Below, piece after piece: positions 27,259-32,000 of a stretch of 32,000 bases of DNA. The translations under genes and the position numbers were made by a program. Every line of letters begins with the position of its first letter. Positions within the stretch are counted from its first letter, which is position 1. Source of the DNA: Desulfovibrio sp. OH1186_COT-070 (GTDB lineage: Bacteria; Desulfobacterota; Desulfovibrionia; Desulfovibrionales; Desulfovibrionaceae); NCBI RefSeq assembly GCF_003860215.1, contig NZ_RQYH01000025.1:2132-34131 (forward strand). The letters run 5' to 3'. A model generated the notes under the pieces. It searched no databases. It saw only the letters and a list, made by a program, of their open reading frames with translations, and was not told the DNA's origin.

Positions 27259-27573
27259 TCAATGACCGCCGCAACCGGCGCAGGAGGAGCATCCGCCGCC
27301 GGTAGCAGGGAAAGGATTGGCAGGCTCGACCACAAAACCCATGTGATTGAGATCCACTGTCACGCCCTGCACCTGTTCCAGCAGTTCGGCGTTGATGCAG
27401 AAAGTGTGGCCTGCCTGTTCTTCGGTTTTGTCTTCCGCGCCCGGTTCGTCCAGAGCCAGGGCCAGACGGGGGCCGCCGCACCCCCCGGCCATGTATATCC
27501 TGATGGGGGCTTTTTCCTTGCCCTCGAAAAATGCATCAAGCTCCTTGCGAGCGCTGTCAGTCACGGTAAGCAT
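27259..27573 (-). CDS. HesB/IscA-like small protein, Cys form (paralog of the adjacent Sec gene)
   Basis: Start is ATG 27573 with SD GAGGA 7 nt upstream. The track start 27579 is a TTG. The 104-aa product is MLTVTDSARKELDAFFEGKEKAPIRIYMAGGCGGPRLALALDEP...GGGCSSCAGCGGH. Confidence 0.85.
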   Translation of the reverse strand: MLTVTDSARKELDAFFEGKEKAPIRIYMAGGCGGPRLALALDEPGAEDKTEEQAGHTFCINAELLEQVQGVTVDLNHMGFVVEPANPFPATGGGCSSCAGCGGH

Positions 27574-27627
27574 TGTCAATTCCTCGATATTTTTTGATTG
27601 TTGTTTGCAGGGCGGCGGTTTTGCATG

Positions 27628-27942
27628 TCAATGGCTTCCGCAACTGCTGCAGCTGCTGCACCCGCCGCCGGTGTCGGCAAAGGGCACGTCAGGTCTTACC
27701 ACAAATCCCATATAGTTCAAATCCACTGTCACCCCCTGCACCTGTTCCAGCAACCCGGCATCCATGCAGAAGGTATAGCCAGCCTGTTCCTCGGTCTTGT
27801 CCTGTTCGTTCGGCTCATCCAGAGCCAGGGCCAGACGGGGACCGCCTCAACCGGCCGCCATATATACCCTGACGGGCTCCTTCTTTTTGCCGGCAAAAAA
27901 AGCATCAAGCTCCTTGCGGGCACTTTCTGTCAATGTTATCAT
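27628..27942 (-). CDS. HesB/IscA-like selenoprotein candidate with in-frame UGA (Sec) at codon 32; absent from the ORF track
   Basis: ATG 27942 is preceded by SD GGAGGA 8 nt upstream. An in-frame TGA lies at 27849-27847 and the stop TGA at 27630-27628. Manual translation gives MITLTESARKELDAFFAGKKKEPVRVYMAAG-U-GGPRLALALDEPNEQDKTEEQAGYTFCMDAGLLEQVQGVTVDLNYMGFVVRPDVPFADTGGGCSSCSSCGSH. It aligns without gaps to the neighbouring 104-aa paralog (78/104 identical by hand count), with U opposite Cys32. Confidence 0.8.
27802..27834 (-). promoter_or_regulatory. Candidate bacterial SECIS hairpin downstream of the UGA
   Basis: The core on the mRNA is GGCUC-UGGAU-GAGCC (27826-27812), starting 20 nt after the UGA. 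The 5-nt apical loop contains GG. A possible lower CUG/CAG helix (27834-27832 with 27804-27802) lies across an internal loop. The Cys paralog has GAA instead of GAG here, which breaks the central C-G pair. Confidence 0.4.
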
Positions 27943-28103: not shown

Positions 28104-28667
28104 ATGTCTGTGGCAACCCGCCTTCTGAACGCCGGAGAAATGGCACAACTTCTTGAAAATCTGGCGTCCCGGATTCTTGAAAAGCATACCCGCTGCGAAA
28201 ATGTGATGCTTGTAGGCATCCAGCGCCGGGGAGCGGATCTGGCGCACCGCCTGGCCGGCCTGCTGAAAAAACGTCTCGGCCGCCCCGTTCCTCTGGGAAC
28301 TCTGGACATCAACCTCTACCGCGACGACTGGACAAGCCTGGCCGGAAAAACGCCGCATGTGGGGCAATCGCGCATTGACGAAGGAGTGGACAACCGCACC
28401 GTCATTCTTGTGGATGACGTCTTGTATACGGGGCGCACTGTCCGCGCGGCTCTGGAAGCCCTGCTGGATTACGGCCGCCCCAGTTCTGTGGAACTTCTGG
28501 CCCTTGTTGACCGGGGACACCGCGAGCTTCCCATCCATGCGGATTATGTGGGGCTTGCTGTGTGCACCGACCGTCAGGAACAGGTCAACGTGCTCCTGAC
28601 AGAACGTGACGGCGAAGACGTTGTGCGCCTTGAGCGCCCCGGCAGCGCTGGCGCGACCCCAAGGTAA
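28104..28667 (+). CDS. pyrR: Bifunctional pyrimidine regulatory protein / uracil phosphoribosyltransferase PyrR
   Basis: Start is ATG 28104 with SD GGAG. The product carries the PRPP-binding motif VILVDDVLYTGRTVRAA. It also contains LDINLYRDD and LVDRGHRELPI, colinear with B. subtilis PyrR as I recall it. Confidence 0.9.
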   Translation: MSVATRLLNAGEMAQLLENLASRILEKHTRCENVMLVGIQRRGADLAHRLAGLLKKRLGRPVPLGTLDINLYRDDWTSLAGKTPHVGQSRIDEGVDNRTVILVDDVLYTGRTVRAALEALLDYGRPSSVELLALVDRGHRELPIHADYVGLAVCTDRQEQVNVLLTERDGEDVVRLERPGSAGATPR

Positions 28668-28728: not shown

Positions 28729-28760
28729 CATATCCGCTCCACGGTTGTGGAGCGCATATG
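28729..28760. repeat. Inverted repeat with 14-bp arms, one mismatch and a 4-nt spacer, in the yedE leader
   Basis: CATATCCGCTCCAC-GGTT-GTGGAGCGCATATG. It lies 62 nt after the pyrR stop and 124 nt before the yedE ATG. No U-tract follows. Confidence 0.55.
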
Positions 28761-28883
28761 GACGGGGGGAGCGGCTCGGACAGGGATGCCCCGCTTGCCC
28801 GCACTGACCCGCTGGATTCCTCCGTCCGCAGTTCCGGCCCCGGCCGGACAATACGGGCACTGCCCGCCACGAAGGAGGAGTTC

Positions 28884-29978
28884 ATGAAAACAGGCTTCAA
28901 CTTTTTTTCCACTGCCACAGGCATTGCGGCCACAGGGCTCATCTTCGGGGTTCTGGCCATTTTGCTGCAAAAGGCCGGAAATCCCGGCAACATGGGCGTC
29001 TGCGTGGCCTGCTTCAGCCGGGATCTGGCCGGGGCCGTGGGGCTGCACCGGGCAGCCGTTGTGCAGTACCTGCGCCCGGAGATCATGGGCATGGTGCTGG
29101 GCGCGTTCGGCGCAGCGCTGGCCTTTGGCGAATACCGGCCGCGCGGCGGCTCCGCACCGGCAACACGCTTTCTTCTGGGGGCCATTGCGGGCATCGGCGC
29201 ACTGGTTTTTCTGGGCTGCCCCTGGCGGGCTCTGCTGCGTCTGGCCGGGGGAGACGCCCATGCAATCTTTGGCCTGCTGGGGCTCATTGCCGGGGTCGGC
29301 GTGGGCACAATTTTCTTTCGCATGGGCTTTTCTCTGGGGCGCAGCCAGACCCAAGGCAAAATTTCCGGCCTTGTTCTGCCCGCCCTCATGCTGGGCCTTG
29401 TGGCCCTTGCTCTGGCCAACCCGCCGATTCCCGATCAGGCGCAGAGCGGCGTGCTCTTTTATTCCCTCAAAGGCCCCGGCGCACAGCACGCGCCCTTTTT
29501 CCTCTCGCTGGGCGCAGGGCTGGCTGTAGGCTTTTTTGCCCAGCGCAGCCGCTTCTGTACCATGGGAGCTGTGCGTGACGTGCTGCTTTTCAACCAGTGG
29601 CATCTGGCCCTGGGATTTTTGGCCATGCTGGCGGCGGCACTGTTCATGAACCTCGCGTTCGGCACGTTCCACTGGGGTTTTGAGAACCAGCCCGTAGCCC
29701 AGCCGGACAATGTCTGGAACTTTCTGGGCATGGTCACCTCGGGGCTGGCCTTTGCCCTGGCGGGCGGTTGCCCCGGCCGCCAGCTTTTCATGGCCGGTGA
29801 AGGAGACAACGATGCCGCAGTCTTTGCGCTGGGGCTTGTCACGGGCGCAGCCATGGCCCACAACTTCGGCATGGCCTCCAGCCCGGTGGGCATTGGCCCT
29901 CACGGCATTGCCGCCACCCTGGGCGGTTTGGGCATCTGCCTGATGATCGGCTTTTTCAACTGCAAGCGAGGCGCCTGA
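28884..29978 (+). CDS. yedE: YedE-family membrane protein (putative selenium/sulfur-compound transporter)
   Basis: Start is ATG 28884 with a strong SD (GAAGGAGG). The product is polytopic and has the two pseudo-repeat conserved-Cys motifs of this family, GNPGNMGVCVACFSRD and SRFCTMGAVRD, plus LAGGCPGRQ. Confidence 0.85.
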   Translation: MKTGFNFFSTATGIAATGLIFGVLAILLQKAGNPGNMGVCVACFSRDLAGAVGLHRAAVVQYLRPEIMGMVLGAFGAALAFGEYRPRGGSAPATRFLLGAIAGIGALVFLGCPWRALLRLAGGDAHAIFGLLGLIAGVGVGTIFFRMGFSLGRSQTQGKISGLVLPALMLGLVALALANPPIPDQAQSGVLFYSLKGPGAQHAPFFLSLGAGLAVGFFAQRSRFCTMGAVRDVLLFNQWHLALGFLAMLAAALFMNLAFGTFHWGFENQPVAQPDNVWNFLGMVTSGLAFALAGGCPGRQLFMAGEGDNDAAVFALGLVTGAAMAHNFGMASSPVGIGPHGIAATLGGLGICLMIGFFNCKRGA

Positions 29979-30208
29979 TGTCTGTTCTCATTGATACGCG
30001 AGGGCTTTCCTGCCCCCAACCCGTACTTTTGTTTCTGAACGCAGCCAAGGCCGATCCCGACAAAACCTTTACCGTGCTGGTGGACAATGACGCCAGCCGT
30101 GAAAACGTCAGCCGCGCGGCCCGCAACCACGGGTTTGGCGTGACCCTCCAACAGGAAGACGAAGGCGTGATACGCCTGGAACTGACAAAAAACGGCCAGG
30201 CGTCCTGA
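29978..30208 (+). CDS. yedF: TusA/SirA-like sulfurtransferase-fold protein (YedF-like)
   Basis: The ATG overlaps the yedE stop (TGATG). The 76-aa product contains the DTRGLSCPQP CPxP active-site motif. Confidence 0.8.
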   Translation: MSVLIDTRGLSCPQPVLLFLNAAKADPDKTFTVLVDNDASRENVSRAARNHGFGVTLQQEDEGVIRLELTKNGQAS

Positions 30209-30279
30209 CTTTGGCGACGCCCAAGGCTATTGACGGGGCATCCCGGCGGTTCGCCTGCCGGGATGCCCAAGGACACCGT

Positions 30280-30894
30280 ATGCCCACAACCAGCCGACAC
30301 ACAGGCGCGGACGGCTTTTTTGCAAAACTGCGTGCGGGCGTTGCGGCCCTTGCCCACCGGATACGGTCTCCTGACGGACGCAAGGCCCTCAATGATCGGG
30401 GCCTGCTGGTCTTCAGCCATACGGGCGAGGTGATCAGAGCGGAACGGCTGTTGCGGGCAACGGGCTTTGACGTGGAGGTCAAAGGGCCGCCGCCGCAGTT
30501 GCGGACAGGCTGTGACATGGTCGTGGTTTTTGCCCTGATGCGGCAGGCAGCCGTTCTGGAAACGCTGCAACGCATCGGCCTGGTGCCGCAACAGGTCGTC
30601 AGCGCCCAGGACGTGCTGCTGGAACCGGTGTCCCTTTTTCAGGTCAAGCATTTTGGCGGACGCTGGATCATGGTTCGCGCGGCCAACATGAAGATCACCC
30701 TGGACAAAACGGACAACCGCATTGTGAACATTTCCGGCGGGGGCTGCCCCGATGTGCCGTGGCTGGCCCACAAATTGTGCGGCCTTCGCCTTGACCAGGC
30801 CCCGGAGCCCCTCTCGCTGGGCAGCACCCTCTGCTGCTACAGCCTGCAAAAAGCCTTTGAGGAATTGCGGAGGCAGAGCGCATGTGGTGCATAG
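30280..30894 (+). CDS. DUF3343 (putative Se/S carrier-like) domain protein with Cys-rich C-terminal extension
   Basis: Start is ATG 30280 with SD AAGGA; TTG 30211 is an alternative start. The DUF3343-like core is LLVFSHTGEVIRAERLLRATGFDVEVKGPPPQLRTGCDMVVVF. The C-terminal half carries GGGCPDVPW, TLCCYS and a terminal SACGA. Confidence 0.7.
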   Translation: MPTTSRHTGADGFFAKLRAGVAALAHRIRSPDGRKALNDRGLLVFSHTGEVIRAERLLRATGFDVEVKGPPPQLRTGCDMVVVFALMRQAAVLETLQRIGLVPQQVVSAQDVLLEPVSLFQVKHFGGRWIMVRAANMKITLDKTDNRIVNISGGGCPDVPWLAHKLCGLRLDQAPEPLSLGSTLCCYSLQKAFEELRRQSACGA

Positions 30895-31769
30895 TGGGCA
30901 CCCTGCCCCAGGAAGATATGCCTCTCTGCCCGCAGGGAGTTCGCGCGCAAAGCAGCCTGCAAAACGGCATGCTGTGCCTGCCCGACGGGCACAAAGTTCC
31001 CGTGGAGCGGGGCACAGCGGCACTGGCGGCCACTGCCCTGACGGTTTGCAGCGCACTGGGGCTGGAGCCGCCCCGCCTGCTTCTGGTGGGCGATCCGGGA
31101 AACGGCGCGGGCAGCCGCGCCATCTACGCATGGCTGGAAGAACACCTGGCGGAGATGGCTCCCGCCGGGCTTGTCTTCCATTATCTTTTTCCGGATACGG
31201 ACGGGCACAACCGCGTTCTGCTGACCGCCCGCGCCCTGCCCCGCCCGCCGCTCATGGTGGCTGATGCCGGGTTCATGTATGCCGCCAAGATGAGTGGGTA
31301 TGCCGATGCCTATGACCTGTTCACCCCTGACATGGGGGAACTGGCTTTTCTGGCCGACGAGCAGGCGCCCCATCCTTTCTATACACGGGGCTTTCTGCTG
31401 GCGGAAGAGGATGACGCCCCTGCCCTGCTGGCCCGCGCGCAAGCCCACGGCAACTGCCCCGCCAACCTTCTGATCAAGGGGGCCCGCGACCTCATTGTGT
31501 GCGGAGGAAGGGTGGCGCACACCGTATCCCGACCGTGTGTGCCGGCCATGGAATGCATCGGGGGAACAGGGGACATGGTGACCGGGCTGGTCACGGCCTT
31601 TCTTGTGAAGGGCTTTTCTGTGGAGCAAGCCTGCCTGACGGCGGCGCGTCTTGCCCGGCTGCTGGCAAAGGCCCATGATCCTGATCCGGGAACCACCGTG
31701 GGGCAACTGCTGGAAAGCCTGCCGCAGGTTCTGCGCGACTGCGGAAAAGACCTCGCCTGTCTGGGATAA
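30882..31769 (+). CDS. Ribokinase-fold protein resembling the YjeF C-terminal (Carb_kinase / NAD(P)HX dehydratase-like) domain
   Basis: ATG 30882 is preceded by SD GGAGG and overlaps the preceding gene by 13 nt. The motifs VADAGFMY, LFTPDMGELAFL, LLIKGARDLIV and GGTGDMVTGLVTAFL occur in the order typical of the Carb_kinase family. Confidence 0.65.
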   Translation: MWCIVGTLPQEDMPLCPQGVRAQSSLQNGMLCLPDGHKVPVERGTAALAATALTVCSALGLEPPRLLLVGDPGNGAGSRAIYAWLEEHLAEMAPAGLVFHYLFPDTDGHNRVLLTARALPRPPLMVADAGFMYAAKMSGYADAYDLFTPDMGELAFLADEQAPHPFYTRGFLLAEEDDAPALLARAQAHGNCPANLLIKGARDLIVCGGRVAHTVSRPCVPAMECIGGTGDMVTGLVTAFLVKGFSVEQACLTAARLARLLAKAHDPDPGTTVGQLLESLPQVLRDCGKDLACLG

Positions 31770-32000
31770 GCACCCGCTGATTGCAGACTGGCCTTTGTGG
31801 TGTACCTGACTGCATGGATCCCAAAAATGCTATGCCATCAAGGATATCTCTGATGTGCTAAAAATTTTTTGAAAATAGTAACGGCGCTGAATCAAAAATA
31901 TGGTTCTAGATAGTGTCGTCACGAGATTGAGGCCCATAAAAAGATACATCTGATCTGAATAGCGGCCAAGAATGAGGCTGCATTTTTCGCGTATCGGGTC

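Follow-up and report, generated by a model that had tools for sequence, protein, structure and literature searches.

A stretch of 32,000 nucleotides from Desulfovibrio sp. OH1186_COT-070 (contig NZ_RQYH01000025.1), hereafter the window, carries a cluster of four genes at positions 28884-31769. The genes encode a YedE-type membrane protein (yedE), a TusA-like carrier (gene 2), a protein with a DUF3343 and a DUF8182 domain (G3) and a ribokinase-superfamily protein (G4). Our analysis revealed that the four genes are a translationally coupled, co-transcribed-looking unit co-inherited across distant phyla, and that this module is found repeatedly beside selD and the selenocysteine (Sec) machinery in several lineages. 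The four genes probably form one dedicated module for selenium acquisition and trafficking.

Reading of the sequence, which is high-GC, confirmed four open reading frames (ORFs) on the + strand with these limits, including the TGATG junction and the 13-nt overlap reported in a preliminary description of the same DNA. The first gene, yedE (28884..29978), encodes a polytopic membrane protein of 364 aa, a putative channel for selenium species of the YeeE/YedE superfamily. Its TGA stop codon (29976-29978) has one base in common with the ATG of gene 2 at 29978, giving TGATG. Gene 2 (29978..30208, stop codon TGA at 30206-30208) encodes a single-domain TusA-like carrier, or short 'YedF', of 76 aa, in which residues 12-15 form the active-site motif CPQP. 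G3 (30280..30894, stop codon TAG at 30892-30894) encodes 204 aa arranged as a variable N-terminal tail, a DUF3343 or Se_S_carrier domain (30400..30600) and a DUF8182 domain (30613..30882). G4 (30882..31769, ATG at 30882, stop codon TAA at 31767-31769) encodes a divergent ribokinase-superfamily protein of 295 aa, and its first 13 nt (30882..30894) overlap the end of G3, an arrangement that points to translational coupling. A Shine-Dalgarno-like motif was read 4-8 nt 5' of each of the four starts.

Two of the start codons needed a choice between candidates. For yedE, AAGGAGGA is present 4 nt 5' of the ATG at 28884, and alignments of its relatives begin at residue 1 or 6 of this start. Automatic gene callers use the ATG at 28758 (406 aa); this start was rejected since a strong Shine-Dalgarno motif precedes 28884 and the alignments of homologues leave 28758-28883 uncovered, so that 28884 is the better supported of the two. 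For G3, the preliminary description gave a start 72 nt after the stop codon of gene 2 or, alternatively, the TTG at 30211. The ATG at 30280 is the most likely start, with a gap of 71 nt: AAGGA is found 6 nt 5' of it, a 204-aa NCBI protein (P0121) is identical to the product, and the region upstream of it is unconserved. The TTG at 30211 exists, and was rejected on these grounds. Searches around the four-gene cluster gave neither a sigma-70-like promoter nor a convincing terminator nor an Rfam element.

Domain content of the four proteins

Comparison of YedE with family models gave 440.4 bits for TIGR04112 seleno_YedE (cut-off 200) over profile positions 2-337 of 337, placing it within this equivalog, against 34.6 bits for the thiosulfate transporter model TsuA/YeeE NF052577 (cut-off 400). 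Gene 2 is a TusA protein by Pfam PF01206 (53.4 bits, cut-off 28.6). Among NCBIfam models it is closest to TIGR03527 YedF, of which it matches only the N-terminal domain (profile positions 1-70 of 194; 52 bits, cut-off 110), and with the E. coli short-form YedF model NF008242 it scores 25.1 bits against 79. A long YedF (TIGR03527) consists of an N-terminal TusA/SirA-like domain with CPxP and a C-terminal DsrE-like domain with CGxC; gene 2 has one domain only and is below both YedF equivalog cut-offs because it is without the second domain. The families assigned in the preliminary description, YedE and YedF/TusA-like, were therefore upheld, with the refinement that gene 2 is a single TusA domain. 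Its other statement, that DUF3343 is fused to YedF in many Firmicutes and that the system is 'split differently' here, was contradicted: domain matches of long YedF proteins near related loci, and the published account (PMC5322559), identify the second domain as DsrE-like and not DUF3343. Hence, the locus is not a re-split YedF-DUF3343 fusion. Genuine long YedF proteins occur near the cassette in other loci.

G3 matched Pfam Se_S_carrier/DUF3343 (PF11823) with 49.7 bits (cut-off 25). The precomputed domain assignment of P0121 includes both PF11823 and PF26554 (DUF8182), and all 120 listed homologues carry PF26554. The domain described earlier as Cys-rich and unassigned is thus Pfam DUF8182, and only three cysteines in the whole of G3 are invariant. 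In a comparison of 21 diverse sequences, among them fused proteins and those of archaea and Chloroflexota, these were exactly Cys78 in DUF3343 (motif GCD[ML], present in 21/21) and Cys156 (VN[IV]SGGGCPD[VI]P) and Cys185 ([TS]LC) in DUF8182. The remaining cysteines of the Desulfovibrio protein are lineage-specific, and its C-terminal CG is unconserved. In an AlphaFold2 (AF2) model of G3, with a mean predicted local distance difference test score (pLDDT) of 81, residues 1-36 appear as a disordered tail, DUF3343 is predicted as beta-alpha-beta-beta-alpha-beta and DUF8182 as a four-strand meander followed by three helices with pLDDT above 90. A profile of the G3 family gave zero matches among PDB sequences, so that no homologue of solved structure was found by this search. 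Foldseek against the PDB gave only weak ACT/ferredoxin-like matches to the DUF3343 half (template-modelling (TM) score about 0.25) and no match to DUF8182.

An invariant loop of DUF8182, VNISGGGCPDVP (30730-30760, G3 residues 150-160), resembles the active site of TusA, in which a strand and a loop lead to C-P-x-P and a helix. Alignment of DUF8182 with the TusA of the cassette by hhalign placed ...SGGGCPDVP... against ...GLSCPQP... with a probability of 0.3%, which is without significance, and the likeness is a motif-level resemblance only.

The AF2 model of G4 (pLDDT 88, predicted TM score (pTM) 0.90) has a ribokinase-superfamily fold. Foldseek against the PDB gave 66 matches at E<=1e-3, of which the best 50 are all ribokinase-superfamily proteins (PfkB, PdxK, Nnr and ThiM-like); the TM scores were 0.5-0.57 and the identities 11-16%. 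Both features of the ribokinase-like superfamily, the three-layer alpha/beta/alpha fold and the C-terminal GxGD anion-hole/catalytic Asp motif, are thus predicted for G4. A profile of the G4 family matched ThiM (3dzv, 3.8e-8) and Nnr (2ax3, 2e-5) only across the C-terminal, nucleotide-binding half, and similarity of the N-terminal, substrate-binding half to these proteins was undetectable. Earlier naming of G4 as a YjeF_C-like protein with a ribokinase fold agrees with the model as to fold, but the YjeF_C part is nominal: the score with Pfam Carb_kinase/YjeF_C (PF01256) is 27.0 bits, a partial match exactly at the cut-off (27), and that with the NAD(P)HX dehydratase equivalog TIGR00196 is 26.7 bits against a cut-off of 129.85, short by 100 bits. 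None of the NCBIfam models scanned fits G4. By sequence comparison G4 is a separate small family, with 231 clusters at 50% identity among 1.84 billion representative proteins. Public records name its members 'NAD(P)H-hydrate dehydratase' or 'sugar kinase'. The scores with TIGR00196 and PF01256 make the public name doubtful, and the 'NAD(P)H-hydrate dehydratase' label is probably a systematic mis-annotation, or over-annotation, of the family.

Analysis of conserved residues in the G4 family revealed the motifs GDxGxGxGS, HYxxP, ADAGxMYxxK, FTPDxGExAFLADxxAxHPxY and ExIGGTGD, together with VKGxxD in the C-terminal half. Among these, ADAGxMYxxK and FTPDxGExAFLADxxAxHPxY are family-specific, and IGGTGD, the nucleotide-binding/anion-hole motif, is nearly invariant. 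The FTPDxGE part is presumably comparable to the TPHxGE of YjeF_C. Many polar residues are invariant and no cysteine is. The cysteine beside the active site (MECIGGTGD) is present mainly in Desulfovibrionaceae, with rare exceptions, and alanine or proline takes its place in most other lineages.

Conservation of the cassette and its selenium neighbourhood

In a scan in which each GTDB species was represented by one genome, at least 587 species had a G4 relative. The best 80 loci were compared by tblastn with the four proteins of the window. The order yedE-yedF-G3-G4 on one strand was found in 70 of the 73 informative loci of other species; seven more loci are truncated at the end of a contig, and in one an assembly gap occupies the expected yedF position. 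Of 78 related loci, 75 retain the overlap of G3 and G4, which is exactly 13 nt in 44 of these 75, and yedE and yedF overlap or are at most 40 nt apart in 60 of 70 loci. The 80 loci span Desulfovibrionaceae (including Bilophila and Lawsonia), Desulfobacterales, Syntrophobacterales, Desulfohalobiaceae, Thermodesulfobacterium and Thermodesulfovibrio (Nitrospirota), and co-conservation altogether reaches Desulfobacterota, Nitrospirota, Thermodesulfobacteriota, Chloroflexota and one archaeon. The conserved arrangement is far beyond chance. Co-conservation of the four families, which the preliminary description had named as a refutation test, was thus borne out by the gene order, the range of phyla and the natural fusions described below. 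Clustering of all flanking ORFs revealed no broadly conserved fifth gene beyond selD and a few lineage-specific neighbours. Since the flanks hold nothing else that is broadly conserved, the four genes are a self-contained cassette.

Within the cassette, G3 and G4 are the invariant core, an obligate pair of which YedE and TusA-type proteins are regular partners. Natural fusions of G3 and G4 were identified in five proteins of 514-588 aa (P0244, P0246, P0248, P0249 and P0251), with DUF3343 and DUF8182 followed by the G4 domain; by the Rosetta-stone argument, the existence of these fusions suggests that G3 and G4 act together physically. The order is YedE-G3-G4-TusA in Dehalococcoidia, and a Chloroflexota contig reads LysR, then YedE-G3-G4-TusA-SelD. 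A Dehalococcoidales island (L088, 1200-13100) contains G3-G4 twice, as paralogous pairs accompanied by YedE, TusA and a long YedF in one case and by a split YedE in the other, and the same layout is present in the P0481 contigs. Between the two pairs are divergently transcribed genes for a GCV_H-like lipoyl carrier and a pyridine-nucleotide disulfide oxidoreductase, which might supply dithiol reducing power; upstream, BcrAD/HGD-D genes flank a small stand-alone DUF3343 gene. In Candidatus Methanoperedens (L081, 4100-7900) a split YedE is followed by G3 and G4 with no TusA adjacent. This archaeal cassette is located just 3' of a phage-type integrase gene, with a TtuA-like tRNA thiolase gene nearby, and because of the integrase its position hints at horizontal acquisition.

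Earlier comparative work (PMC5322559) reported TIGR04112 YedE only in SelD-containing organisms, and YedF and DUF3343 genes next to those for SelD and Sec lyase. In our set, selD (TIGR00476, 354 bits) is present within the flanks of 12 of the 80 loci, usually directly 3' of G4 on the same strand. One of the loci (L006, 7900-15800) reads yedE-yedF-G3-G4-selD-selB-tRNA-Sec-selA, and another (L030, 8100-18900) has selD, selB, tRNA-Sec and selA beside the cassette, followed by the gene for a formate dehydrogenase catalytic subunit. Both are complete selenium islands. Long YedF (TIGR03527, 229 bits) and C-GCAxxG-C-C (seleno)proteins recur near the cassette. The 32-kb window itself contains no selD. 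It does contain, 1 kb upstream of the cassette, a HesB/IscA-like tandem pair (NF038090 IscA_HesB_Se) on the - strand, at 27628-27942 and 27259-27579. The first of these genes has an in-frame TGA (27847-27849) exactly at the position of the cysteine of its paralogue (AAG*GGPRL against AGGCGGPRL), and it is by this alignment a selenoprotein gene beside its Cys isoform. As the in-frame TGA is at this position, the organism appears to decode Sec. A hairpin about 20 nt past the HesB UGA was no better than shuffled sequence (z = -0.56). In 10 related loci of gut Desulfovibrio, HesB-like genes are found upstream of the cassette. The proposal of an undescribed selenium or sulfur module tied to SelD was hence supported as regards a linked module with Sec neighbours, and the word undescribed does not apply to the selenium link of YedE, YedF and DUF3343, which is already published (PMC5322559).

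Proposed function and rival explanations

Overall, the system would be a chalcogen channel with a cysteine relay, extended by a dedicated and putatively nucleotide-dependent enzyme. We infer the reaction chemistry, the order of the steps and the delivery to SelD as follows. YedE would admit an anionic selenium species across the membrane, such as selenite or a selenosulfate/selenotrisulfide-type ion, as YeeE does for thiosulfate. The TusA-like protein would dock on YedE and capture selenium on its CPxP cysteine, as YeeD does with thiosulfate; in YeeE-YeeD uptake requires the TusA-like partner, whose cysteine becomes modified by the substrate (PMC11073785). Selenium would then pass to G3, on which the three invariant cysteines may hold a perselenide or selenotrisulfide. 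G4 bound to G3 would spend a nucleotide (ATP or ADP) to process or release the selenium bound on G3, and the product would be usable by SelD for the synthesis of Sec, selenouridine or a cofactor. The nearest relatives of G4 phosphorylate a hydroxyl group, and in Nnr elimination follows. Because of this chemistry, activation and elimination on a selenium-oxygen or selenium-carrier intermediate is conceivable, and a phosphorylation-type activation of such an intermediate followed by elimination, as in the YjeF_C relatives, may serve as a working guess for G4.

Several points weigh against this interpretation. The gene selD adjoins the cassette in only about 15% of loci, and there are two true exceptions to the gene order, one locus without yedE and yedF (L002) and one with G4 alone (L041). 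The four proteins in this arrangement are known from sequence and predicted structure alone. Deletion of yedE in Methanococcus maripaludis gave no clear selenium-transport phenotype (PMC11097638). The nucleotide-dependent step assigned to G4 is a guess, since G4 has no invariant cysteine and its pocket is without a recognisable relative. The three cysteines of G3 could instead ligate an iron-sulfur (Fe-S) cluster, and on chemical grounds alone sulfur is possible in place of selenium.

If the substrate were sulfur, YedE would import thiosulfate or sulfane sulfur, and TusA, G3 and G4 would relay persulfide for assimilation, for a thio-cofactor or for tRNA thiolation, as in YeeE/YeeD and the TusA/DsrE relays. 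The characterised members of the YeeE/YedE superfamily move thiosulfate or zero-valent sulfur (PMC11073785, PMC11582611), and TusA, DsrE and DUF3343 are found also in organisms not using selenium (PMC5322559). The GCV_H-like lipoyl carrier and disulfide reductase between the Dehalococcoidales cassettes and the TtuA-like thiolase near the Methanoperedens cassette fit a role in sulfur transfer as well. However, YedE scores 440 bits on the selenium-type model and only 34.6 on TsuA, and the recurring neighbours are selD, selB, selA, tRNA-Sec, long YedF, HesB-like and C-GCAxxG-C-C (seleno)proteins rather than cys, sox or dsr genes. The hosts are, in addition, sulfide-producing anaerobes that would have no evident need for a high-affinity importer of reduced sulfur, and we regard a sulfur module as unlikely. 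Detoxification, buffering or export of excess selenium instead of supply to SelD is a very unlikely role, although Lin et al. raised YedE as a possible exporter (PMC5322559) and multi-cysteine carriers with an energy-consuming partner would suit sequestration too. The position of selD directly 3' on the same strand and the adjacent Sec machinery speak for supply, the yedE transcript of M. maripaludis is induced by selenium starvation (PMC11097638), and the flanks contain no conserved partner of the reductase or efflux type.

The pair of G3 and G4 could also be read as a regulatory or gating device, G3 as a Fe-S or thiol sensor and G4 as a nucleotide-binding switch on YedE, with neither acting on selenium. 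The three invariant cysteines, one in DUF3343 and two in DUF8182, could be the ligands of a cluster, the ACT/ferredoxin-like fold of DUF3343 is typical of small-ligand sensors, G4 is without an invariant cysteine, and SoxT1B is a YeeE-like protein that acts in signalling (PMC11582611). The retention in G4 of the catalytic Asp of GGTGD and of many invariant polar residues is nevertheless enzyme-like, DUF3343 proteins cluster with Sec lyase and YedF in a manner that suggests carriers (PMC5322559), and G3-G4 pairs are found also beside a long YedF with no adjacent YedE; a purely regulatory role is accordingly one to which we give little credence. A last alternative, that G4 is simply the housekeeping enzyme of NAD(P)HX dehydration, or a sugar or vitamin kinase that has no relation to yedEF and lies beside them by chance, agrees with the public names and with the threshold match to Carb_kinase. 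The fusions, the conserved overlap and an equivalog score far below the cut-off effectively exclude it. Nnr and ThiM are moreover similar to G4 only in the C-terminal half that binds the nucleotide, the gene context is conserved between phyla, and the family is tiny, where one of much greater size would be expected for a repair enzyme.

The preferred reading therefore remains a module for selenium acquisition and trafficking. A more specific proposal can be put forward only tentatively, as a possibility that is more doubtful than the module itself: G3 and G4 may be a new two-subunit, sometimes fused, enzyme-carrier that supplies a missing step in the specific mobilisation of selenium. In it, the ribokinase-fold enzyme would use ATP or ADP to activate selenium held on the three cysteines of DUF3343-DUF8182, for instance through phosphorylation of a selenium-oxygen or selenium-carrier intermediate, and reduced selenium would be delivered to SelD. 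If true, this would constitute new ribokinase-superfamily chemistry and a basis for the discrimination by anaerobes of selenium from a vast excess of sulfide.

Relation to known systems and flanking features

The closest known system is YedE/YedF (FdhT/FdhU; Lin et al. 2015, PMC5322559). The likeness consists of a TIGR04112 YedE followed by a TusA/SirA-like protein, a nearby DUF3343, which is the published candidate selenium/sulfur chaperone, and the published association with selD. Unlike in that system, the TusA here is single-domain and lacks the DsrE-like part of TIGR03527; the protein with DUF3343 adds DUF8182 with two further invariant cysteines; and there is an obligate, sometimes fused ribokinase-fold partner, unmentioned in the 2015 study and in later reviews. 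Thiosulfate uptake by YeeE/YeeD (TsuA/TsuB; PMC11073785) also pairs a superfamily channel directly with a small TusA-like protein that has an essential cysteine, and is the mechanistic template for the entry and capture steps proposed above. It differs in that the YedE of the window falls far short of the TsuA model, in that YeeE/YeeD has no equivalent of G3 or G4, and in that the context here is selenium and not sulfur assimilation. The TusA-DsrE relays (TusA to DsrEFH/TusBCD to DsrC/TusE) likewise pass a chalcogen on small cysteine carriers from an entry point to a consuming enzyme, whereas the carriers here are DUF3343 and DUF8182 and not of DsrE fold, and a putative nucleotide-dependent enzyme is built in. 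Among enzymes, G4 is like YjeF_C/Nnr, the ADP- or ATP-dependent NAD(P)HX dehydratase, and the hydroxyethylthiazole kinase ThiM in fold, in the C-terminal VKGxxD and in GGTGDxxTG, but its N-terminal half is dissimilar, it is below the equivalog cut-offs, it has invariant motifs of its own family and it has a dedicated partner in G3.

A search of the literature on DUF8182, PF26554, Se_S_carrier and YedE plus kinase returned nothing relevant, and no paper, NCBIfam model or named Pfam family was found that describes a role for DUF8182, the G4 family or the obligate pairing of G3 and G4 with YedE and TusA. What is new here is confined to the DUF8182 domain and the partner with a kinase fold, the selenium link of YedE, YedF and DUF3343 having been known since 2015 (PMC5322559). 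That selenium role is still called putative in papers of 2024-2026 (PMC11097638, PMC13188914), and according to one of 2024 no selenium-specific transporter has been established in any organism (PMC11097638).

The problem addressed by such a module is the specific uptake of trace selenium and its handover to selenophosphate synthetase amid an excess of sulfur and without toxic free selenide. To the candidate YedE/YedF system the locus adds two proteins that travel with YedE and YedF across phyla, a putative carrier with three cysteines and a putative nucleotide-dependent enzyme. Four purifiable proteins and a defined operon provide a testable lead. Among the hosts are sulfate reducers amenable to genetics and pathobionts of the gut, such as Desulfovibrio and Bilophila, in which energy metabolism relies on selenoenzymes.

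Three further observations concern the flanks. A protein of 80 aa with a CxxC-like motif (…GVCLLCTH…) is encoded on the same strand about 30-150 nt 3' of G4 in nine loci (L038, L058, L062, L063, L064, L067, L068, L074 and L079), and Pfam and NCBIfam scans of it gave no match. Its hosts are mostly Desulfobacterales and Desulfohalobiaceae, with one Desulfovibrionaceae metagenome-assembled genome (L079), and it could be a lineage-specific fifth component. In the window, pyrR (28104-28667; PyrR equivalog, 216 bits) is directly 5' of yedE on the same strand, a position kept in at least four related gut Desulfovibrio loci (flank ORF cluster 18); a regulatory RNA was looked for in the 216-nt gap between pyrR and yedE and none was detected. 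Directly 3' of G4 the window becomes AT-rich (31770-32000), and the three same-species contigs displayed (L085, L086 and L087) all stop 170-300 bp past the G4 stop codon. The shift in composition and the three contig ends together suggest that a repeat, a mobile element or an assembly breakpoint follows G4 immediately.

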